NCBI GenBank assembly: GCA_963817955.1
Contig: CAWFQK010000007.1
Coordinates: 96,001 to 160,000 of the forward strand
DNA: 64,000 nucleotides
DNA from: an uncultured Gemmatimonadaceae bacterium
GTDB lineage: Bacteria; Gemmatimonadota; Gemmatimonadetes; Gemmatimonadales; Gemmatimonadaceae
Direction: 5' to 3'
Below the pieces are notes generated by a model that was not told where the DNA came from, searched no databases, and saw only the letters and a program-made list of their open reading frames with translations. Each line of letters starts with the position of its first letter. Within the stretch, counting starts at the first letter, position 1. Shown here one piece after another: positions 15,093-23,446 of the stretch. Both the position numbers and the translations under genes were made by a program.

Positions 15093-15867
15093 GTCGTTCG
15101 CTGAATACGCGGGATGCGGTGAGCCGCGTGCCGTCACGCATGATGACGATGTATTCGCCGTGGAACCACGGTTCCAGCTCCTTGATGCGATCGATGTTGA
15201 CGATCGCTGAGCGATGAATGCGCACGAACGTCTTGGGATCGAGCTTCGCCTCCATGTTCTTCATGCTCTCACGCAGGAGATGTGCATCGCCTTTGGTGTG
15301 GATCTTCACGTAGTTGCCTGAGGCCTCGACCCAGTCGATCTCCTCGGTCCGCACGAAGAACACCCGGCCGCTCGACTTCACGATCAGGCGCTCCGGGTAC
15401 TTGCGCTCCTCGCGCAGCTCCTCGAGAAAGGAAACGAGGCTCGAATCGATCGTCTGTCCCTTCTTGCGTACGATGTGCGTACGCGCGCGCTCGAGTGCCT
15501 TCTCGAAACGGGTCTGATCAAACGGTTTGAGCAGGAAGTCGAGCGCGTGAATCTCGAAGGCGCGGATGGCGTAGGCGTCGTGCGCGGTGACGAACACGAT
15601 CGCCGGCATCCATGCGGGATCGATGTTCTCCGCTACCTCGAAGCCGTTCATACCGGGCATCTGTATGTCCAGAAAGACGAGATCCGGCTGTTCGCGATCG
15701 ATCGTCTCCAGGGCGCTGACGCCGTCGGCGCAGACGGCAACCACGGTGATGTCTGTTTGCTGATCGAGCAGCGAATGGATTCGGTCGCGGCCGAGCTCTT
15801 CGTCGTCGACGATCACGGCGCGGATCTTCGTCGATTCTGCGGAGAAAGAACTGGAGGTTGGTGTCAT
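15073..15867 (-). CDS. LytTR-family response regulator
   Basis: REC (FLDIQMPG, LLKPF) plus FVRIHRSAIVN. Confidence 0.93.
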   Translation of the reverse strand: MTPTSSSFSAESTKIRAVIVDDEELGRDRIHSLLDQQTDITVVAVCADGVSALETIDREQPDLVFLDIQMPGMNGFEVAENIDPAWMPAIVFVTAHDAYAIRAFEIHALDFLLKPFDQTRFEKALERARTHIVRKKGQTIDSSLVSFLEELREERKYPERLIVKSSGRVFFVRTEEIDWVEASGNYVKIHTKGDAHLLRESMKNMEAKLDPKTFVRIHRSAIVNIDRIKELEPWFHGEYIVIMRDGTRLTASRVFSERLSSLIA

Positions 15868-17069
15868 CAGTCTGCCGCCGTCCGCTCGAAATGGTGAAAA
15901 GGAATTGTCATGGTCACATGCACTCCCTCGCCCGGGGCGCCGCGCAGCGAAAACGAGTGCCGGTCGCCGTACAAATGCGCCAGGCGCTGCCGCGTGCTTG
16001 CCAGCCCCACGCCTTCCTTGTGGCCGGCGCGCAGGCCGCGGCCGTTATCCACGACGTCGCAACGAAGCAAATCGCCATCGCGCTTCACCGAAATGGCGAT
16101 GGAGCCCTGGCCAAGGTCGCCGAAGCCGTGACGGAACGAGTTCTCGACGAGTGGCTGAAGGAAGAGGTTGGGCACCCGCGCGTCACGCGTCTCCGGAGCG
16201 ACGTCGATCGTGACGTGCAACCGGTCGCCGAAGCGTAATGACATGATCTCGACGTAACGCTGCAGGAACTCCAGCTCGGACTGGAGCGGGACCTCCTGGG
16301 CGCCAATGTTGTGAAGCGACATCCGCAGCAGGTCACTCAATGCGGCGATCATCGTGTCTGCCCGGCGTACATCTTTGTGCATGAGCGCCGAGATGGAATG
16401 CAACGTATTGAATAGAAAGTGCGGCTGGAGTTGCATCCGCAGCATCTGGAGCTGCGCCTGTGCCAATCGGGCTTCGAGCTGAGAGGCGCGAATGGCGCGG
16501 TCTTTCGACACGCGATAATACACCACCGCATGGTGGACGATGACGATGACGCAGAAGATGAGCGCGTCAAGCACCGTCCAGGCGAGCAGAGACGCATTGA
16601 ACAGCGCCGGCATGTTGGCAACCCCGATGGCGGGGTCGAGGAGGCTCAGCGCGATGGAGTAGATCGCAATGTGGCCGACCACGAAGCAACACATCGCGCC
16701 GACTTGCACGAGCCAATTGCGCAACGATGCATTTCCCCAGACCGGAAAGCGCTTGGCCCCAACCATGACCAGCGGCGTGAGGAGCGCCCACGCGTAGGTG
16801 AAGATCAATTCGGCCGGCACCAGCTGCGCAAGCGACACGGGCGCGTCGATGACGCGATTGTACAGATATCTCTCGATCGAATACAGGAGCCCGATGACCG
16901 TGGCGACGCAGAACAGCACGAGCGTGAACCCCACGCGATGCCCCCGCACGACCGCCTGATCGGCGCCCTGCGTCAACCCAAGGATGCTGTATTCCGCCGT
17001 CTGGGCCAGCGGCTCTGCGCCGGGCGGCGTGCGCGTTGGAGCGCTGGATCGTGATTTCAGTGGCGACAA
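15867..17069 (-). CDS. LytS/YehU-family membrane histidine kinase
   Basis: About 4 TM segments; QLQPHFLFNTLH; QPLVENSFRHG; start uncertain. Confidence 0.9.
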   Translation of the reverse strand: MSPLKSRSSAPTRTPPGAEPLAQTAEYSILGLTQGADQAVVRGHRVGFTLVLFCVATVIGLLYSIERYLYNRVIDAPVSLAQLVPAELIFTYAWALLTPLVMVGAKRFPVWGNASLRNWLVQVGAMCCFVVGHIAIYSIALSLLDPAIGVANMPALFNASLLAWTVLDALIFCVIVIVHHAVVYYRVSKDRAIRASQLEARLAQAQLQMLRMQLQPHFLFNTLHSISALMHKDVRRADTMIAALSDLLRMSLHNIGAQEVPLQSELEFLQRYVEIMSLRFGDRLHVTIDVAPETRDARVPNLFLQPLVENSFRHGFGDLGQGSIAISVKRDGDLLRCDVVDNGRGLRAGHKEGVGLASTRQRLAHLYGDRHSFSLRGAPGEGVHVTMTIPFHHFERTAAD

Positions 17070-17170
17070 GAAATCGGCTTCCGCCGGTTCGGTAATTGGA
17101 ATAGTTAGCAGATTGTTGAACTACGAGTGAATCGCCAGCAATCGGTTACGCAGCTGCGAAGATCGTGGCC

Positions 17171-17235
17171 TGTCATCCTGAGCGAAGCTTGTCATCCTGA
17201 GCGAAGCTTGTCATCCTGAGCGAAGCGAAGGATCT
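17171..17235 (+). repeat. Three tandem REP-like units
   Basis: tgtcatcctgagcgaagct x2 followed by tgtcatcctgagcgaagcgaaggatct. Confidence 0.85.
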
Positions 17236-17258
17236 CTGTGACCGATAGAACCGCCTTT

Positions 17259-17565
17259 AACGCAGAGGTCGCAGAGAACTGCAAGAGAGAACTGCAGAGG
17301 ACCGGGAAGGATTGTCTCGCCTGGAAGTCTTGGCTGATGCCGTCGTGATACTCCGATGGTATCGCCCAGGTCGAGATTATCAGCGATATAGGCAGAATGA
17401 TTTTTGGACTCAGCATCCACGGTTCATTCCCCCGATACGCGCCTCCCTTTTCCGTACGCTTCCAGTTCCATTTTCCAGTTCTCTTGCAGTTCTCTTGCAG
17501 TTCTCTTTTGCAGTTCTCTTGCAGTTCTCTGCAGTTCTCTTGCAGTTCTCTGCGACCTCTGCGTT
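17259..17565. mobile_element. MITE/REPIN-like element, copy 1
   Basis: Perfect 30-bp TIR (17259-17288 / 17536-17565); internal gcagttctct-type tandem units; core shared with 22396-22671. Confidence 0.75.
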
Positions 17566-17816
17566 CAAAAGCTGTTCTACCGCTCTGCGTTCAAAAGCTG
17601 TTCCGGCCCTCGAAGTGATGCGCATGCCCTCGAGCTTCTGGCTCCTGTCCAGCACTGTTTAGGGGTGGTTGGTTGAATGCGTTGGGCACACGGCCAGTAG
17701 TCCATACCCAGAACCCAACCCGTCGGTTTCGTCCAGGCTCCGTTCCTTAGACACTTGATCGGCGAAAATGGGCACCCAGCTGTGCAAACTCGTCGAAATG
17801 CGGGGGCAAACGCGAA

Positions 17817-17842
17817 CCCTCCGGACCGCTTGATCCGGAGGG
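17817..17842 (-). terminator. Hairpin downstream of the amidase
   Basis: ccctccgga-N8-tccggaggg, about 20 nt after the stop; weak U tail. Confidence 0.5.
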
Positions 17843-17863
17843 CCTTGGAACTCCAGCGTGCCG

Positions 17864-19693
17864 TCAGGCGAATTGGGGCGGCCGCTTCTTGTGAAAATCC
17901 GTGGCCTGCTGAAACGCGTGTGCCACCAGCAAGTTCTTTTCGTCCTGAAAAATTGGGCCCATGATGTACATGCCCGTCGGAAGGGCCACTTGAGGCGCCG
18001 GCGGCGCCGGCGGCGTTGGTGGCGTCGCTGCCCGCGTCGTATCCCCACCGCGACCGCCAGCCGCCCCGCCTCCCCTCCCGCCGCGCCCGAATGCGGGCGG
18101 AATGGCGAAGCCGGTGGGGACGACGATCGATGGCGTGCCGACGACGTTGGTGACCGACGTATTCTCCTGCGGCGTGACTACCACATCGTACTTCGAGAAC
18201 AGGTCCCACATCTGATTCATTGCGGCGATGCGCACGCGGTTGGCGTTCACATAGTCCACGGCCGGAATGAATTGGGCGGCGCGGAAGGTGTTCGGCCAAC
18301 TGCTGTACGGCTCCAGCTCCTTGATCTGACTGTTGAGCGTATCGGGCTCGAACGCCGCGCCGCACTCACTGTTGAGAATGATCGAATCCAGGTATCCGTA
18401 ATTCGGTGTCGGTACCTCGATCGCCTCGAGCTTGGCACCCTGTGCTTCGAGCACTTTGAGGAAGTTCATCGCCTCCGGAATGGGCGTCGTGGTGCCGTCC
18501 TGGGCGCGCCGCTCGAAGTTCGACTTGAAGTACGCAATGCGGAGCTGTGACAGCTGGTGTGTCGCGTTCCAATTGAAGGGATACGCCTTGACCGAGTAGT
18601 CGATACCATCAGGTCCCTGGATGGCGTCGAACACGAGCGCGCAATCTTCGGCGGTTCGGCAGATTGGGCCGAGCTTGTCCGTCGTCCACGACAGTGCCAT
18701 GGCGCCGGTGCGCGGCACGCGACCGAAGGTCGGACGGAAGCCCGAGACGCCGCAGGTGCGCGACGGCGAAGTGATCGAGCCGTTCGTCTCCGAGCCGATG
18801 CTGAAGCCGACGCAGCCTGCGGCCGTTGCCGATGCAGGGCCGGCCGACGATCCGCTTGCGCCGGGCGACAGTTGCTCGGGGATCCACGGGTTTCGGGTGT
18901 ACTGTTTCCACCAACGATTACCCTGGGCGAGCGATCCAAGGGCGAGCTTGGCAACGAGGATCGCGCCCGCCTCGTCGAGCCGCTTGACGACGCTCGCATC
19001 GTAATCGAACGTCTGGTTCTGATAGAGGCCGGCGCCCCATGTCGTGGGATAGCCCTTCACGGCGATGAGATCCTTCGCGCCCCACGGGATGCCGTGCAGC
19101 GGCCCGCGATATTTGCCGCGCGAAATCTCGGCATCCATGTCTTTCGCCTGCTTGCGCGCGCGCTCTTCGGTGAGGTTCACCACGAAATGGAGCTGCGGGT
19201 CGTAGCGCTTGAGGCGCGACAGGTACATGTCGGTAAGCTCCGATGGCTTGACCTTGCGCGTGCGCACGAGCTCCGAGAGCTGGGCAACCGGCGCGTATGC
19301 AAGCTCATCGAGGCTGCCTGGGCGTGTGAGGACGGGCATCTTGCTGCGCACGACCCCCGCCTTTGTCTTCCTCGGCAACTCCTTGCCCGGCGGTACGGGG
19401 TCGAACACGATCGCAGGCAGGATGCTCTGGTCGAGCGGTTCCTTGTGGAGCGTCGCGATATTCGAGCGCATCTGCGTCAGGCTGCGCACCATGGCGGTGC
19501 GCTCCTCATCGCTGAACTTCAGACCGGAGATCTCCTCCGCCGATGCGATCATCTCCTTGGTTATCTCAGGCCCCTGCTGCTGTCCCTGCGCTTGGGACTG
19601 TCCCCAGAGCACGCCTGGGAGGAGCGTGGAGCCGAGTCCTATGGAGCTGAAGTACGCCATGAAGGCGCGGCGATCGTATTTGGTGTCTGACAT
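17864..19693 (-). CDS. Tat-exported amidase-signature family protein
   Basis: DRRAFM Tat motif; GPLHGIPWGAKD; GASGSSAG; IGSETNGSITSP; Gly/Pro-rich GGRGG insert; start MSDTKY. Confidence 0.9.
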   Translation of the reverse strand: MSDTKYDRRAFMAYFSSIGLGSTLLPGVLWGQSQAQGQQQGPEITKEMIASAEEISGLKFSDEERTAMVRSLTQMRSNIATLHKEPLDQSILPAIVFDPVPPGKELPRKTKAGVVRSKMPVLTRPGSLDELAYAPVAQLSELVRTRKVKPSELTDMYLSRLKRYDPQLHFVVNLTEERARKQAKDMDAEISRGKYRGPLHGIPWGAKDLIAVKGYPTTWGAGLYQNQTFDYDASVVKRLDEAGAILVAKLALGSLAQGNRWWKQYTRNPWIPEQLSPGASGSSAGPASATAAGCVGFSIGSETNGSITSPSRTCGVSGFRPTFGRVPRTGAMALSWTTDKLGPICRTAEDCALVFDAIQGPDGIDYSVKAYPFNWNATHQLSQLRIAYFKSNFERRAQDGTTTPIPEAMNFLKVLEAQGAKLEAIEVPTPNYGYLDSIILNSECGAAFEPDTLNSQIKELEPYSSWPNTFRAAQFIPAVDYVNANRVRIAAMNQMWDLFSKYDVVVTPQENTSVTNVVGTPSIVVPTGFAIPPAFGRGGRGGGAAGGRGGDTTRAATPPTPPAPPAPQVALPTGMYIMGPIFQDEKNLLVAHAFQQATDFHKKRPPQFA

Positions 19694-19840
19694 TATGAGT
19701 GGGCCAGAGGATCGGACGACGGGATATCTGCGGCCTAATCTTCTCCCGCGGGACCAAGAGGCCGCAAGGGATATTGGCGAAGCGACCATCCTCCACCCGG
19801 AAGGCCCGATCTCCGTCGGCACGCGTTTATCTTTCACCCC

Positions 19841-20332
19841 ATGCCGATCGTTCGATTCGAGGCGTTGCCAGACTCGGCTCGCGTGTGGGTATTCGCGAGC
19901 GACAATCCGCTGACCGGCGCCGCGGCGGATACGCTGTTGGCGTCCGTCGACCAGTTTCTGGCCGACTGGAAAGCGCACGGTCGGCCGCTGCACTGTGCGC
20001 GGGACTGGCGCGATGGACGCTTTCTGGCCATTGGCGTGGATGTGACCGAGGAAGACGCCTCCGGTTGCTCAGTCGACGGTCTGTTTCGCACCTTCCAGCA
20101 GCTCGAGCGCGTCATCGGCTCGCGTCTCGTCGGCGGTGGACGCGTCTTCTACCGAACGCAGTCAGGTGTCGAAATGGCATCGCGCGAGGAATTTTCCGAT
20201 CGTGCCAAGCGCGGCGAAGTCTTGCGCGAAACGCCGGTGTTCGACACGAGCATCACACACGCGCGCGATTGGCGTAACAATTTCGAGCAACCAGCAGGCA
20301 AGACCTGGACGGCCGGCTTCTTTCAGAATTGA
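19841..20332 (+). CDS. Conserved hypothetical protein
   Basis: LPDSARVWVF, WKAHG and ASGCSVD motifs; -10 box 7 nt upstream. Confidence 0.75.
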   Translation: MPIVRFEALPDSARVWVFASDNPLTGAAADTLLASVDQFLADWKAHGRPLHCARDWRDGRFLAIGVDVTEEDASGCSVDGLFRTFQQLERVIGSRLVGGGRVFYRTQSGVEMASREEFSDRAKRGEVLRETPVFDTSITHARDWRNNFEQPAGKTWTAGFFQN

Positions 20333-21351
20333 CCGCGGGTGACATCGGCCAGCACCCGCGTCGTGCGAGTGATTTCCTCCGCCTGCCCGCGCGATAGCGT
20401 CTCGTTTGCATCGAGACACCAGATGCCGTCCAGGAGTCCGTCTCGCCGAAGCACCTCGTGAATTCCAGGAATGCAACCGGCAAAGGCGTGCGACGCATCG
20501 AACACGGCCGCATTGGCGTCGGTGAGCGCCGCCCCCAATGAAAGCAGCGCCGGATCGATCGCACCTCGCGAGCGAGCAAGCTTGATGTGCGCCAGGAGCG
20601 CGACGGCATCTCGCGTCCATATCGCCCACTGTCCGAGCAGCCCGCCATCGATGAAGCGCGTGACGGTGGTACCGCCGGCGTTCACAGGAAACGGCGTCAG
20701 GAGATCGGCGACGATATTGTCGTCATTGCCGGTGTAGAGCGCCACGTCGTCACGGCCGGCGTCGACGACGGCACGCACGACGTCGATGGTCTGATACCGG
20801 TTGAACGGCGCGATCTTGATGGCCCACACGTCTGGAATCTCGGCGAACTCCCGCCAGAAACGATACGACAGCAGGCGTCCGCCGACCGCGGGCTGGAGAT
20901 AGAAACCGAACAGCGGCATGATCTCGGCGATGGTGCGGCAATGCACGAGGAGATCGTCCTCGGGTTCCTCGTGCCACCCGCCCAAGCTCAAGAGCGCGGC
21001 GTCGTATCCGAGCGTCGCAGCGATCTCCGCTTCCGTGGTGGCCTGTGACGTGCGGCCGACGACCCCCGCGATCATGGCAAACGCCGCGTTGTCGCGCGTG
21101 CGGCGCGCTTCGTCCATCGCCATCTCGAGCACAGGCCGATAGAGTCGGACGGAGACATCTCGAATGGCGAACTGCGTCGTGTGCACAGCGACCGCTAGAC
21201 CACCGGCACCCGACTCGATGTAGTAGCGCGTGAGTCCGCGCTGTCTTCGCTCGTCGAGCGTGCGCGCTTCCGTGAGCGCGAGCGGATGCGCGGGGATCAC
21301 CTGTCCGGCGCGCAGGTGCGCGCGCACGCTCACGCGTTCAGAATTTTCCAT
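20323..21351 (-). CDS. DHDPS/N-acetylneuraminate lyase-like aldolase
   Basis: VHTTQF; GFYLQPAVGG; IKIAPFNRY; YTGNDD. Confidence 0.82.
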   Translation of the reverse strand: MENSERVSVRAHLRAGQVIPAHPLALTEARTLDERRQRGLTRYYIESGAGGLAVAVHTTQFAIRDVSVRLYRPVLEMAMDEARRTRDNAAFAMIAGVVGRTSQATTEAEIAATLGYDAALLSLGGWHEEPEDDLLVHCRTIAEIMPLFGFYLQPAVGGRLLSYRFWREFAEIPDVWAIKIAPFNRYQTIDVVRAVVDAGRDDVALYTGNDDNIVADLLTPFPVNAGGTTVTRFIDGGLLGQWAIWTRDAVALLAHIKLARSRGAIDPALLSLGAALTDANAAVFDASHAFAGCIPGIHEVLRRDGLLDGIWCLDANETLSRGQAEEITRTTRVLADVTRGQF

Positions 21352-22342
21352 CGCGCGCCTCGAATTTGGTCGGCTTGCCGAGCAGTGCTCCTCCGGCCTC
21401 GACCCAGTCCGCTATCCACGTGAGCATCTGTTGGGTGCTCACCTCTGGTGGGGCGAACTCCGATCGCATGCGCGACGTGTTGCTGAGCAACGCGTCGGCG
21501 CGTTCCTTTCCCGTGAATGTCGCGCGCGTCGCGAAGCGCGCCGCGAACCACTCGGCGATTGCGCGCACCGATAGTTCCTCGGCGCCAGTGACGTTCACGA
21601 CGAACGGCGGTACCGCGGCCTTCGACAGACACTCGAGCGCGATGCGATTCGCATCGCCCTGCCATATGACGTTCACATACCCCATATCCACAGACACGGG
21701 GTCGCCGCGCTGCACGCGCGTGGCGATGTCCACGAGGACACCATACCGCAGGTCGATGGCGTAGTTGAGCCGCATGATAGCCACATGCGTGCCATATCGC
21801 TCGGCGTACGATTCGAACACGCGCTCACGGCCAACGCACGACGCGGCGTACTCGCCGACCGGGCCGAGTGGATCGTCTTCGCGTGAACCGCCGGCGTGCA
21901 CCGGTGCGAGAGCATACACATTGCCGGTGGAGAAAGCGACAATGCGCGAGTTGCGATATCGTTCGGCGCAGTTTGCTGGCACAATCGTGTTCATCGCCCA
22001 TGTCATTGCCGGCGCACCGCTGGTTCCGAACTTCTGCCCAGCCATGAACACCACGTTCGGTGCATCCGGTAATCGCGCGACCGCGTCACGATCGAGCAGG
22101 TCGCAGCGCACCGTTTCGACACCGGCGTCGTTCAGTGCTCGCTCGGTCTTGCTGGACGACCATCGCGACACGGCAATCACGCGGCGGTTGTCCTGGACCG
22201 CGCGCGCCGCCATGCGAGCGAGGGTCGGTCCCATCTTGCCCCCCGCTCCCAGAATGATGACGTCGCCTGGAGCTTCCTTGAGTGCCGCAACGGTCTGGGT
22301 TCGCGGCGTGGAGAGCAGGGTGTCGAGGTCGTCAGGCGACAT
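21338..22342 (-). CDS. NAD-dependent epimerase/dehydratase
   Basis: LGAGGKMG; FSTGNVY; EYAASCVGRE; the upstream ORF extension runs through repeat DNA. Confidence 0.85.
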   Translation of the reverse strand: MSPDDLDTLLSTPRTQTVAALKEAPGDVIILGAGGKMGPTLARMAARAVQDNRRVIAVSRWSSSKTERALNDAGVETVRCDLLDRDAVARLPDAPNVVFMAGQKFGTSGAPAMTWAMNTIVPANCAERYRNSRIVAFSTGNVYALAPVHAGGSREDDPLGPVGEYAASCVGRERVFESYAERYGTHVAIMRLNYAIDLRYGVLVDIATRVQRGDPVSVDMGYVNVIWQGDANRIALECLSKAAVPPFVVNVTGAEELSVRAIAEWFAARFATRATFTGKERADALLSNTSRMRSEFAPPEVSTQQMLTWIADWVEAGGALLGKPTKFEARDGKF

Positions 22343-22395
22343 GGTCAAGAGCGGCTCTTCGGGGGTTCGGGGGCGGGACGGTTTGTTTGTTTTAA

Positions 22396-22671
22396 CGCAG
22401 AGGTCGCAGAGAACTGCAAGAGAACGGCAAAGAGAACTGCAAGAGAACTCAAAAGAACTGCAAAGAGAACTGGAAGCGTACGGAAGAGGGAAGCGCGTAT
22501 CAGTGGAATGAACCGTGGATGCCGAGTCCACAATCATTCCGCCTATATCGCTGATAATCCCGACCTGGGCGATACCATCGGAGCGTCCCGACGGCATCAG
22601 CCAAGACTTCCAGGCGAGACAACCCTTCACGGTCCTCTGCCGTTCTCTTGCAGTTCTCTGCGACCTCTGCG
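22396..22671. mobile_element. MITE/REPIN-like element, copy 2 (inverted relative to copy 1)
   Basis: Perfect 34-bp TIR (22396-22429 / 22638-22671); core ~92% identical to the reverse complement of copy 1 (hand alignment). Confidence 0.75.
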
Positions 22672-22771
22672 ATAAATAGCTGTTGCGCCGTCCGCCCTAA
22701 CCAGCTTTTTCATGCCCCCACGAACCCATCAATTCGCCCACTCATTTCGGCGAAGACCCATCAAAGGTAAG

Positions 22772-22980
22772 TCTGGCGCCCATGCCGGTCATGAGTTGCG
22801 ACAGAGATCATTCGGTATGCTGAGCCTGGTCTCGGGCGGCTGCTCGTTGATTGCCGAGAACAGAATCGACAGAAATGCCGTGATCGTGGGGGATTGCCTG
22901 ATGTCGAGGTCGGCATAGAAGTACATTTTCCCGTCGCGATACTCCAGTGCCTGCGTCTTTCGTGGAGTGCCTTGAATGGC
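22772..22980 (-). pseudogene. Degraded SufE-family gene fragment
   Basis: Minus frame reads LEYRDGKMYFYADLDIRQSPTITAFLSILFSAINEQPPETRLSIPND, then shifts frame to LMTGMGAR; the N-terminal portion and catalytic Cys region are absent. Confidence 0.55.
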
Positions 22981-23017
22981 GTGCAGTCACGTAATCGATC
23001 ATCCGGGAGGGGGGAGC

Positions 23018-23446
23018 ATGCCGACACGTAATGCGACAGCGAAGTGGGAAGGTGGTCTCAAGGGGGGACGCGGTAGCTTCAGCGGACAGACGGGATTTGG
23101 CGGGCAATACAACTTCAGCTCGCGTTTCGAATCGGGTGTCGGCTCGAATCCCGAAGAGTTGCTCGCCGCCGCGGAGGCGGCGTGCTACAGCATGGCGTTG
23201 AGCGGGGCACTCGAGGCCAACGGCACACCTCCGACCAGCATCGAAACCAAGGCGGGATGCACCGTTGAGAAGGTCGGAGCGGGCTTCACGATCACGAAGA
23301 TGGTGCTTGACGTGCGTGCCGTGGTGCCGAAGGTTGACGATGCGACGTTCCAGCGTCTCGCCGCCGACACCAAGCAAAACTGTCCGGTATCGAAGGCGTT
23401 GAAGGGGAACGTGGATATTCAGGTGACCGCAACTCTCTCGTCGTGA
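23018..23446 (+). CDS. osmC: OsmC-family peroxiredoxin
   Basis: SRFESGVGSNPEELLAAAEAACYSMALS; NCPVSKAL; RBS ggag. Confidence 0.92.
   Translation: MPTRNATAKWEGGLKGGRGSFSGQTGFGGQYNFSSRFESGVGSNPEELLAAAEAACYSMALSGALEANGTPPTSIETKAGCTVEKVGAGFTITKMVLDVRAVVPKVDDATFQRLAADTKQNCPVSKALKGNVDIQVTATLSS

Follow-up and report, generated by a model that had tools for sequence, protein, structure and literature searches.

In a 64,000-nucleotide stretch of DNA from an uncultured Gemmatimonadaceae bacterium (the window), two copies of a short terminal-inverted-repeat (TIR) element face opposite ways around a block of four genes, raising the question of what these elements are and whether, as the original prediction proposed, such a pair could invert or mobilise the block that it encloses. 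The explanation that we consider probable is that both are MITEs derived from a gene-bearing cassette, multiplied in a lineage-specific burst and set beside an old block, with spread driven by a nuclease being the mechanism that we propose.

Structure of the two inverted copies

Copy 1 runs from terminal repeat to terminal repeat at 17261-17563 (303 bp, + strand; C7:113261-113563) and copy 2 at 22396-22671 (276 bp, − strand; C7:118396-118671), with a gene remnant on the + strand in the former and on the − strand in the latter; both belong to subfamily A, described below. As had been predicted, the copies are inverted, their 23-nt terminal repeats are identical and their 11-nt sub-repeats are variable. 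A 33-nt stretch at 17256-17288, TTTAACGCAGAGGTCGCAGAGAACTGCAAGAGA, has the same letters at 22391-22423. An element arm combines a conserved tip, GAACAGCTTTTGAA, with two CGCAGAG words spaced 9 nt apart and an 11-nt unit, GAGAACTGCAA, repeated a variable number of times; the number of GAGAACTGCA(A) sub-repeats varies between arms and also between copies. The left arm of copy 1 (17256-17288, + strand), with the words CGCAGAGGT and CGCAGAGAA followed by 11-nt units, pairs over 33 nt at 97% with the right arm (17536-17568, − strand), which lies after about seven GCAGTTCTCT(T) units starting at about 17473. In copy 2, the arms at 22391-22432 (+ strand) and 22635-22676 (− strand) are inverted-repeat partners over 42 nt at 95%. 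The conserved tip extends about 13 nt outward (GAACAGCTTTTGAA adjoining CGCAGAGG) in three of the four arms of the two copies, and the right-arm tip of copy 1, CTCTGCGTTCAAAAGCTGTTC, is doubled (17557-17603, + strand), the two occurrences lying 26 nt apart and the outer one being a solo arm tip. A further module, GAGTGGGCGAATTG, adjoins copy 2 (22730-22743, − strand); it has 11 copies genome-wide, seven of them at most 90 nt from an element.

In the core of copy 1 (17300-17465, + strand), about 75 nt are homologous to a GxxExxY gene's leader, a remnant of that gene's first 19 codons lacks the start codon, and filler makes up about 35 nt. The interiors of the two copies match in inverted orientation (17286-17402 with 22532-22648, 117 nt, 93%; 17402-17473 with 22462-22533, 72 nt, 89%), and the one-base offset between these matches corresponds to a 1-nt indel. 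An earlier count by hand of about 13 substitutions and one indel fits the blastn result, in which the cores are 91.6% identical over 166 nt with about 14 differences. Folded as single-stranded DNA, copy 1 is predicted to form a hairpin of −76.6 kcal/mol (z = −9.95). Copies 1 and 2 are gene-less, hairpin-forming, MITE-like miniature elements.

A multi-copy family and its probable amplification in one lineage

The 23-nt end pattern has 97 matches in the genome and the same pattern read backwards has none, which places the family far beyond chance. At least 52 copies are present in the 4.5-Mb genome, 46 as TIR-bounded pairs and at least six as one-ended copies, so that the pair in the window does not stand alone and the non-autonomous, multi-copy family envisaged earlier is real. 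The core was found 48 times by blastn, with 38 of the matches at least 150 nt long, and the gene-less pairs (n = 43) span 231-398 bp without an ORF. Among the ends of the core-found copies, 64 of 76 have at most two mismatches in 23 nt and the other 12 are degenerate or missing (at least three mismatches or no match). Divergence of the core from its consensus is 6.0%, being 4.9% in the leader-like part and 7.5% in the codon remnant. The 12 most similar copy pairs (91-93.6% identical) have unrelated outer flanks, and the closest pair is only 93.6% identical, giving no sign of recent movement; one copy is interrupted by an IS3-family element. The copies examined are all intergenic. The reported absence of a target-site duplication extends to all 46 copies, none of which has a visible direct duplication; the candidates TTAA and TTNAA are inconsistent across copies, the bases next to either end reading TT(N)AA and forming no consistent direct repeat. 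Symmetry between the arm flanks over all 46 copies is not significant (8.78 within copies versus 9.07 between; 6,182 of 10,000 permutations as high).

Among 30 congeners, the end pattern has no match in 23 and 1-8 matches in the other seven. Most of these relatives are fragmented assemblies, where repeats can drop out, but G005 (3 contigs), G017 (10 contigs) and G009 (30 contigs) likewise have only 0-2 matches. Nor are the copies fixed at orthologous positions, as the element is absent from the orthologous spacers of 8/8 relatives for copy 1 and 9/9 for copy 2; since these relatives are at least 19% diverged, an empty site cannot be defined to the base. Scans of metagenomes for a strain-level empty site returned no match to a 26-nt flank of copy 2 and one to a 21-nt core word, a chance match that falls in an unrelated coding region. 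A different arm variant has 34 matches in G008 (690 contigs, 91% complete) and none in this genome, and the two PF13366 genes of G008 belong to another subfamily, with other arms or none. The expansion of the family to more than 50 copies very probably took place once this lineage had split from the sampled congeners.

The gene-bearing cassette and its GxxExxY protein

A version of the element that carries an ORF was found on another contig, where two copies hold an intact 125-aa GxxExxY gene between the same ends. These cassettes, at C2:315617-316187 (PF13366 E 1.4e-38, TIGR04256 E 4e-40) and C2:763928-764502 (PF13366 E 8.8e-38, TIGR04256 E 2.7e-39), are about 570 bp in full length, and their inverted arms enclose the PF13366 gene only. 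The two genes score 132.3 and 129.7 bits for PF13366 (cut-off 22) and 136.8 and 134.1 bits for TIGR04256 (cut-off 35), and they are the only PF13366 matches genome-wide, each with exactly the family's ends. Subfamily A of the gene-less copies retains the two arms along with the leader and the first 19 codons of the gene, while subfamily B (11 probe matches, including the probe's own locus) retains the leader and the last ~16 codons; the subfamilies keep different parts of the gene, indicating two independent internal deletions of one parent. The gene-less copies are very probably internal-deletion derivatives of the GxxExxY cassette that were amplified in this lineage; counting against this, the 130 nt that gene-less and gene-bearing forms share are only ~79% identical.

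The two GxxExxY genes differ at 22 of 378 nt, with 17 synonymous and five nonsynonymous changes. The cassette protein reads GLLERAY at the GxxExxY motif and has the D63...E73-x-K75 catalytic motif, and E23, D63, E73 and K75 are invariant in 30/30 homologues from the genus. Judged from these comparisons, the gene is under purifying selection and its predicted catalytic motif is intact. An AF2 model of the protein (pLDDT 94.1) has only PD-(D/E)XK nucleases as its top structural matches, the nearest solved structures being Cas4 SSO0001 (Z 8.1, rmsd 3.2 over 96 residues), the BpuSI nuclease domain (Z 7.8) and Hjc (Z 6.6), an assignment at superfamily level only, Z scores of 7-8 being common for unrelated models. 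A sequence search of solved structures with the protein gave no match, and Foldseek with the model returned nothing at E ≤ 0.001.

The association between GxxExxY genes and cgcagag...ctctgcg repeats, put forward in the original prediction, holds within the genus and, beyond it, across phyla. Of 30 GxxExxY loci in the genus, 18 have flanking inverted repeats (E < 1e-3), compared with 0/58 shifted and 0/30 shuffled controls; across at least 12 phyla, the figure is 46 of 78 (shuffled 0/78, mismatched arm pairs 5/78). Two or more CRCRRAG words in an arm, with a modal spacing of 9 nt, occur at 66/72 GxxExxY loci versus 6/72 far-control windows. Conservation of these words beside GxxExxY genes over such a range is hard to explain unless protein and words interact. 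The GxxExxY/PF13366 family is very large, with more than 600 loci matching just two peptide patterns in a related-loci search of one-genome-per-species data, run with 11 closer sequences.

Nested repeats

Copy 1 lies within a larger composite repeat, the 'O' unit (17105-17662), identified by a left-end probe match at C7:113105-113167 (93.7%) and having its own inverted ends, a left one reading TTAGCAGATTGTTGAAC... and a right one, partly deleted, reading ...CTCCTGTCCAGCACTGTTTAG. An arm of a hairpin repeat, 'H', lies at 17161-17236 (+ strand), with three tandem GTCATCCTGAGCGAAGC units and GAAGGATCTC at its end. A unit of about 590 bp is common to three copies at 89-93%, an element lies next to 12 of the 14 'O' left ends, and an 'O' of about 135 bp without an insert is present at about C4:1,672,075-1,672,215. 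In a search for an autonomous 'O' version, the sole solo left end was found beside AbiEi/AbiEii genes, with no transposase. The separate GAAGGATC hairpin repeat adjoins 46 of 92 element arms. The 'H' hairpin occurs in 16/31 genomes of the genus, among them genomes that have no copy of this TIR (137 matches in G009), in which it forms compact palindromes. Flank symmetry is confined to the 10 copies whose two arms have the same type of flank, 'H'; there, the 16-nt segments past the tips are near-identical between arms (1.3 edits versus 4.5 between copies; 1 of 10,000 permutations as low). The innermost element is also found outside 'O' and 'H' contexts, as in copy 2.

Genes of another family, PF05635 (four-helix bundle), lie within 118-122-nt inverted repeats in the same genome, and the arms of these cassettes are likewise dispersed as gene-less copies, from which it follows that a gene enclosed by such arms need not be the mobilising enzyme. 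The element may have spread partly as a passenger of larger repeats, and copy 1 would have come inside the composite repeat or inserted into it.

The enclosed block and alternative explanations

The genes between the copies are those given earlier: an amidase ORF (17864-19993, − strand), the first gene of the block; an ORF without a Pfam match (19841-20332, + strand), the DNA of which is conserved in relatives; a DHDPS-family gene (20323-21351, − strand); and an NAD-dependent epimerase/dehydratase gene (21338-22343, − strand). The listed epimerase ORF continues to 22630, into copy 2; its start is probably the ATG at 22343, which would place copy 2 about 53 nt upstream. The block is flanked by a histidine kinase gene on the copy-1 side (15867-17069, − strand), copy 1 lying between the amidase stop and the kinase start, and by an OsmC-like gene on the copy-2 side (22976-23446, + strand).

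That the two copies jointly move or flip the 4.8-kb block, as a composite transposon or an invertible segment, would be in keeping with their size (276-303 bp), core identity (~92%) and inverted placement, which make homologous inversion possible in principle, and with the outer ends of the pair forming a valid terminal-repeat pair. This part of the original prediction is not supported: an 8.4-kb query against the same genome (G000) matched the block once, its other matches falling only on the two element stretches, and gene order and orientation to both flanks are the same in six element-free relatives (G009, G002, G012, G006, G004 and G010). An inversion does vary within the genus, with its breakpoint at about 20,340, between the hypothetical ORF and the DHDPS gene and thus at neither copy. 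Being single-copy and colinear with relatives, the block is very probably ancestral and, in this assembly, neither mobilised nor inverted; we regard joint action of the pair as extremely improbable. Copies 1 and 2 would then have landed independently in two intergenic spacers flanking an old syntenic block, and for annotation, the pair does not turn the amidase-epimerase block into a mobile island. The intergenic positions of the copies examined, those of copy 1 and copy 2 relative to the neighbouring genes included, together with the very stable fold and the slightly better conservation of the leader-like part of the core, would also suit REP-like hairpins kept for use by the host as terminators, mRNA stabilisers, insulators or protein-binding sites, their numbers reflecting usefulness. 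We consider such a role very improbable, since the same operon spacers work element-free in every relative compared, most congeners lack the end pattern, the copies are decaying, as the degenerate ends and the IS3-split copy indicate, and the interiors are plainly gene remnants. A search of Rfam with E up to 1 found no match in 16900-23100, and a scan of 17000-17900 found no promoter-like site and one terminator-like site, within shuffle expectation.

The harder choice concerns what drives the spread. The arms may themselves be what spreads, through template switching, hairpin-primed repair at replication forks, host recombination or riding in 'O' and 'H' units, with GxxExxY carried as cargo, such as an addiction or defence nuclease favoured by its position in the loop. 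The nesting at 'O' left ends and the insert-free 'O', the occurrence of 'H' in genomes without this TIR, the arm-to-arm likeness past the tips of 'H'-flanked copies, as templated correction would give, the analogous PF05635 cassettes, and the 34 arms of G008 with no cognate gene in the assembly are all consistent with it. We nevertheless consider it unlikely, as the element also occurs in contexts without 'O' or 'H', the gene appears to be under purifying selection with its catalytic motif intact, the genome's only two GxxExxY genes both bear exactly these ends, and CRCRRAG words accompany such genes in at least 12 phyla. In the nuclease-driven explanation that we prefer, the protein from the two intact cassettes would recognise the word arrays or their hairpin or cruciform, cutting at the arms would promote copying of arm-bearing DNA, and gene-less copies would be served in trans; on the narrower claim that GxxExxY is the enzyme that moves the elements, we are evenly divided. 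More tentatively, GxxExxY proteins could be the dedicated nucleases of a pan-prokaryotic and so far undescribed class of hairpin-armed cassettes, spanning at least 12 phyla, with arms that are phased CRCRRAG arrays read by the protein, with this genome caught after a burst, its copies extending other palindromes, and with the ORF-bearing intervening sequences (IVS) of 23S rRNA and the PF05635 cassettes as sister branches. Under this broader reading, the class would occur in bacteria and archaea, the burst would have left more than 50 gene-less copies, stemming from two independent deletions, beside two intact cassettes, and insertion into other palindromic repeats would yield onion-like nested palindromes.

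The genetic argument for a role of GxxExxY is unusually clear, in that the genome's only two such genes have exactly the ends of about fifty gene-less derivatives, the parent gave rise to two independent deletion forms that each multiplied, and the amplification is lineage-specific. The spread of about fifty copies in one species points to a little-studied kind of selfish DNA. If the nuclease does drive it, the enzymes of non-autonomous mobile DNA would include a new class, and a route would be suggested by which palindromic repeats and IVS-like cassettes originate. With a protein of 125 aa, sites of 23 nt and a substrate of 300 bp, the idea lends itself to direct testing.

Comparison with known systems

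Classical bacterial MITEs are derived from IS elements by internal deletion. The family described here resembles them in its TIRs, its length of 230-400 bp without an ORF, its many copies with unrelated flanks, its origin by internal deletion, on at least two independent occasions, from a longer element that carries a gene and has the same ends, and its absence from the orthologous spacers of relatives. It differs in lacking a target-site duplication, in having a parent that encodes no known transposase family, and in its long, sub-repeated arms of variable unit number, which are more like those of eukaryotic foldback elements.

PD-(D/E)XK nucleases that take part in DNA mobility include TnsA of Tn7, PD-(D/E)XK homing endonucleases, Cas4 and archaeal Hjc. 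The GxxExxY protein has the fold and the D...E-x-K motif in common with these and differs from them in having no sequence match among solved chains, no partner transposase or intron context, and a candidate substrate only. The part cited of a survey of the PD-(D/E)XK superfamily gives the function of GxxExxY/PF13366 as unknown (PMC3424549). Outside subscription-only papers, a literature search for GxxExxY, PF13366/PDDEXK_3 and TIGR04256 found nothing on mobility, repeats or biochemistry and no published description of GxxExxY cassettes.

The IVS of 23S rRNA, for example that of Coxiella burnetii, is described as an element of about 430 nt whose complementary ends pair into a stem and whose loop contains a small ORF of unassigned function, and as long suspected of being selfish or once mobile (PMC4990558). 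Stem-forming ends and a small ORF in the loop are also the plan of the cassette here. As against that description, the present copies lie between protein-coding genes rather than in rRNA helix 25 or 45, without an Rfam match in 16900-23100, the ORF belongs to PF13366 rather than S23p/PF05635, and spread has been at the DNA level, to more than 50 copies. The PF05635 genes with 118-122-nt inverted arms elsewhere in this genome belong to the IVS ORF family.

The closest parallel in architecture is REPIN/RAYT, in which REP doublets are paired with REP-associated tyrosine transposases (Bertels & Rainey 2011; PMC3116915, PMC3337134). As outlined in the parts of those papers cited, both systems comprise dozens of short, non-autonomous, intergenic inverted-repeat units predicted to form single-stranded hairpins, inverted hairpin doublets enriched extragenically, and very few gene copies flanked by the same repeat as the presumed source of the enzyme; the likeness is one of architecture only. 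Measured against the same outline, the protein here is a 125-aa PD-(D/E)XK protein of PF13366 rather than an HUH/Y1 transposase, and a PF01797 (Y1/RAYT transposase) search of this 94% complete genome gave no match; 7-nt words recurring at intervals of 9-11 nt make up the arms, in place of a single REP palindrome, and the gene-less copies still hold recognisable pieces of the gene. Were the two intact cassettes to act in trans as proposed, the family would be analogous to the REPIN/RAYT or MITE/transposase pairs, with another enzyme fold.

Two inverted copies and their anatomy

The original observation of two inverted element copies was borne out, and each copy has its own terminal inverted repeat (TIR). 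An identical 33-nt stretch is present at window positions 17256-17288 and 22391-22423, and the interiors of copy 1 (17261-17563, + strand) and copy 2 (22396-22671, - strand) are inverted relative to one another, matching over 117 nt (93%) and 72 nt (89%) with a one-base offset. The TIR of copy 1 spans 33 nt (97%) and that of copy 2 spans 42 nt (95%), and the two cores agree at 91.6% over 166 nt. An arm is built from a pair of CGCAGAG words spaced 9 nt apart and, after them, 11-nt GAGAACTGCAA units in variable number. The single-strand hairpin of copy 1 is stable (-76.6 kcal/mol, z = -9.95), no RNA family match was found, and, as had been noted, there was no target-site duplication at the element copies. 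These two are the only copies inside the window. The gene content between them is also as described, namely an amidase gene, an ORF without a Pfam match, a DHDPS-family gene and an epimerase gene, with a histidine kinase gene and an OsmC gene in the outside flanks.

A multi-copy family in the genome

The genome (4.53 Mb, 9 contigs), in which the window corresponds to C7:96001-160000, was searched for further copies using the core and the ends. Blastn with the core gave 48 matches, 38 of them at least 150 nt long, while the 19-nt end matched 114 times at ≤3 mismatches and the 23-nt end pattern 97 times at ≤2 mismatches, compared to 0 for the reversed-reading control. Plus and minus ends no more than 2 kb apart form 46 pairs, and at least six further core-bearing copies have one degenerate end, placing the window pair within a multi-copy family, as proposed for a non-autonomous element. 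The pairs measure 231-398 bp in 43 cases, 571 and 575 bp in two and 1,795 bp in one. The 1,795-bp copy (C8:4587-6381) is a gene-less element with its core split by a ~1.44-kb IS3-family insertion containing orfA (HTH_Tnp_1) and orfB (rve), the core pieces overlapping by 2 nt. A minimal palindrome of arms only, in which the arm runs straight into its complement without a core, was also observed at C4:1517899-1517960.

The gene-bearing cassettes and their protein

An ORF-bearing version of the TIR, proposed earlier as something to look for, was found at C2:315617-316187 (571 bp) and C2:763928-764502 (575 bp). Each contains one 125-aa ORF matching PF13366 PDDEXK_3 (E = 1.4e-38 and 8.8e-38) and TIGR04256 GxxExxY (E = 4e-40 and 2.7e-39), and PF13366 has no further match in the genome. 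The nearest named homologues suggest that the organism probably belongs to the Gemmatimonadota. The two genes differ at 22 of 378 nt, with 17 synonymous and 5 non-synonymous differences, indicating purifying selection. All 30 genus homologues keep the glutamate of GxxExxY as well as the D63...E73-x-K75 motif unchanged. An AlphaFold model of the protein (pLDDT 94.1, pTM 0.87) matched only PD-(D/E)XK nucleases, at the superfamily level, including Cas4 SSO0001 (Foldseek E 5.8e-3, VIA Z 8.1), the BpuSI nuclease domain (Z 7.8) and Hjc (Z 6.6); no sequence match to any solved chain was found.

Derivation and age of the gene-less copies

The window copies and the gene-bearing copies have in common the left arm, a ~75-nt leader, the right sub-repeats and the right arm. 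The window copies retain the first 19 codons of the GxxExxY gene, with the start codon lost, and codons 20-125 are absent. The core of gene-less subfamily 'A' is present in 32 of the 43 short pairs, and in subfamily 'B' the leader is kept together with the stop and the ~16 codons before it; the 'B' probe matched 11 times, including its own locus. Types 'A' and 'B' thus arose by separate internal deletions of a single parent and were both amplified, a pattern classically seen in non-autonomous derivatives. A ~900-bp duplicated region rich in ~24-nt tandem repeats has two partial 'B' ends at its edge (C4:766500-767430 and C4:1120175-1121075).

The 'A' cores are 6.0% off their consensus with a mean pairwise identity of 89.5%. 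Among whole elements, the closest pair is 93.6% identical, and outer flanks are unrelated in the 12 closest pairs. The ends of copies located by the core alone have ≤2 mismatches per 23 nt in 64 of 76 cases and are degenerate or missing in the other 12. Given the core divergence, the identity of the closest pair and the degenerate ends, the burst was not recent. Gene-less and gene-bearing forms are only ~79% identical in their shared part.

The link between gene and arms

PF13366 is present in 31 of 31 genus genomes (1-9 matches each), and the best locus per genome was taken; for the cross-phylum sample, 80 loci were drawn from named genomes that represent 12 or more phyla and include archaea, and 2 of these loci were dropped because their flanks were short. 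The association of GxxExxY genes with cgcagag repeats, mentioned originally for other genomes, holds in both. Flanking inverted repeats (E<1e-3) are present at 18 of 30 genus loci (controls 0/58 shifted, 0/30 shuffled) and 46 of 78 cross-phylum loci (controls 0/78 shuffled, 5/78 mismatched arm pairs), 15-130 nt either side of the ORF, and the words that compose them include CGCAGAG, CACAGAG, CGCGGAG and CGCAAAG. Full flanks were available for 72 cross-phylum loci. At 66 of these, an arm contains two or more CRCRRAG words, a pattern seen in 6 of 72 far-control windows. At 38 loci the words occupy both arms in the usual orientation and at 8 they do so inside-out, with none in far controls. Neighbouring words are mostly 9 nt apart (8-10 nt overall), and forms related to the arm tip outside the words (GAACAGCTTTTGAA here) recur in congeners. 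Judged from these samples, the link between the GxxExxY gene and the arms is general.

Distribution in the genus and the enclosed block

The 23-nt end pattern, so frequent here, is absent from 23 of 30 congeners and occurs 1-8 times in the remaining 7, where the words are variant. A different arm variant has 34 matches in congener G008, 8 in G017 and none here. Contrary to fixed orthologous positions, the element is absent from both spacers in relatives: the copy-1 spacer, 829 bp here when measured from one alignment boundary to the other, is 301-513 bp and element-free in 8 of 8, and just the element-free part of the copy-2 spacer aligns in 9 of 9 colinear relatives, the inverted repeat being absent. 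These counts and alignments indicate that the family is lineage-specific and that both insertion sites were once empty; coding DNA of the relatives has diverged by 19-28%, so base-exact empty sites are undefinable. In the kinase-amidase spacer, a short block at window 17735-17790 (GTTTCGTCC...TTAGACAC) is kept in the relatives examined (loci L011-L017 and L019) while the remainder has diverged, and it may be a regulatory site. Congeners also contain gene-less hairpin elements that combine arms of related CGCAGAG type with another core, GAGCCGGGA...CTGCCGCTCGGG (L139, G039:C1:1267000-1267700; L141, G040:C25:99300-99900; L041; L044). In G003 and G033, subfamily-2 GxxExxY genes are enclosed by 129-134-nt arms that this core likewise forms.

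The suggestion that the copy pair could mobilise or invert the 4.8-kb block was not supported. An 8.4-kb query has one full match in the genome, its remaining matches there being confined to the two element stretches. The kinase, amidase, ORF, DHDPS-epimerase, OsmC and next genes have the same order and orientation in six congeners (G009, G002, G012, G006, G004 and G010), all with 0 copies of the end pattern. Seven others (G003, G005, G017, G015, G007, G011 and G001) have a second arrangement, inverted from the DHDPS gene outward, with its breakpoint near window 20,340, at neither element copy. On this copy-number and gene-order evidence, the block is very probably not mobile. The genus-level polymorphism turns the DHDPS-epimerase-OsmC-SDR segment relative to kinase-amidase-ORF and reaches beyond window 24,300, its near breakpoint lying between the tail-to-tail ORF and DHDPS gene.

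Nesting and mode of spread

The same ends are present on gene-bearing and gene-less copies. The GxxExxY protein might read the word arrays and then cut the arms or their cruciform, and such cutting could lead to copying in trans. Probable passenger spread in larger units counts against this, and many copies do sit within other repeats. A separate repeat, GTCATCCTGAGCGAAGCGAAGGATC, has GAAGGATC as its end, and 46 of 92 arms adjoin this end. The repeat is a hairpin family of its own, 'H' (GTCATCCTGAGCGAAGC(GAAGGATC)), with 81 matches here, for example at window 17161-17236, C2:806744 and C2:807128, and 16 of the 31 genus genomes contain it. In G009, where the element TIR has no match, 'H' has 137; there (loci L142-L150) it forms compact palindromes whose loops measure ~16 nt, often accompanied by tandem partial units. 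A ~590-bp 'O' unit with its own inverted ends is common to three copies. The larger unit encloses 12 of the elements, with copies at window 17105-17662, C2:676135-676725, C4:1348099-1348711 and C4:1374799-1375367. Its left ends adjoin an element in 12 of 14 cases, including window 17105-17167 (TTAGCAGATTGTTGAAC...), so that copy 1 is embedded in the composite 17105-17662. One insert-free 'O' of ~135 bp lies near C4:1672075-1672215, and a transposase-bearing version, looked for in the genome, was not found. One solo left end adjoins AbiEi/AbiEii genes. The flanks of copy 2 are unlike those of copy 1 and include a GAGTGGGCGAATTG module; the module ...GAAATGAGTGGGCGAATTG(ATGGGTTC)... at window 22722-22760 (- strand) has 11 genome copies (e.g. 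C4:652492, C7:63973); for 7 of them an element lies no more than 90 nt away, and for the other 4 it does not. We conjecture that this nesting arose as elements inserted repeatedly into other hairpin repeats or as palindromes grew around these. In 10 copies with 'H' on both sides, the 16-nt segments between 'H' and the tip are nearly identical arm-to-arm (1.3 edits within a copy vs 4.5 between copies; 1 of 10,000 permutations as low), while no arm-flank symmetry was found across all 46 copies. Arm-to-arm templated correction is a known process and could be the source of the symmetry.

The case for movement driven by the GxxExxY protein is also weakened by the lack of target duplication and of recent copies, and by G008, which has many arms and no cognate gene in its fragmented assembly. 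In addition, four-helix-bundle genes of PF05635 (23S rRNA IVS-protein family; 5 genome matches) lie between inverted repeats at 2 of 4 examined loci here (C4:1054669-1054980 and C4:1553199-1553510; arms 122 and 118 nt, 95-97%), and their arms are likewise dispersed gene-less, beside the GAAGGATC module.

Comparison with known systems

The function of PF13366 is listed as unknown in PMC3424549, and the searchable literature on GxxExxY, PF13366 and TIGR04256 yielded nothing on repeats or mobility. No Y1/RAYT gene was found in the genome. We rate the family as non-autonomous inverted-repeat elements with a presumed trans-acting enzyme of unexpected fold. It is alike in design to REPIN/RAYT pairs, as described in PMC3116915 and PMC3337134, but without a Y1 transposase, and to IS-derived MITEs, but without target duplication or a known transposase. 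In anatomy, it resembles the ORF-bearing 23S rRNA intervening sequences described in PMC4990558, although the elements here lie outside rRNA.
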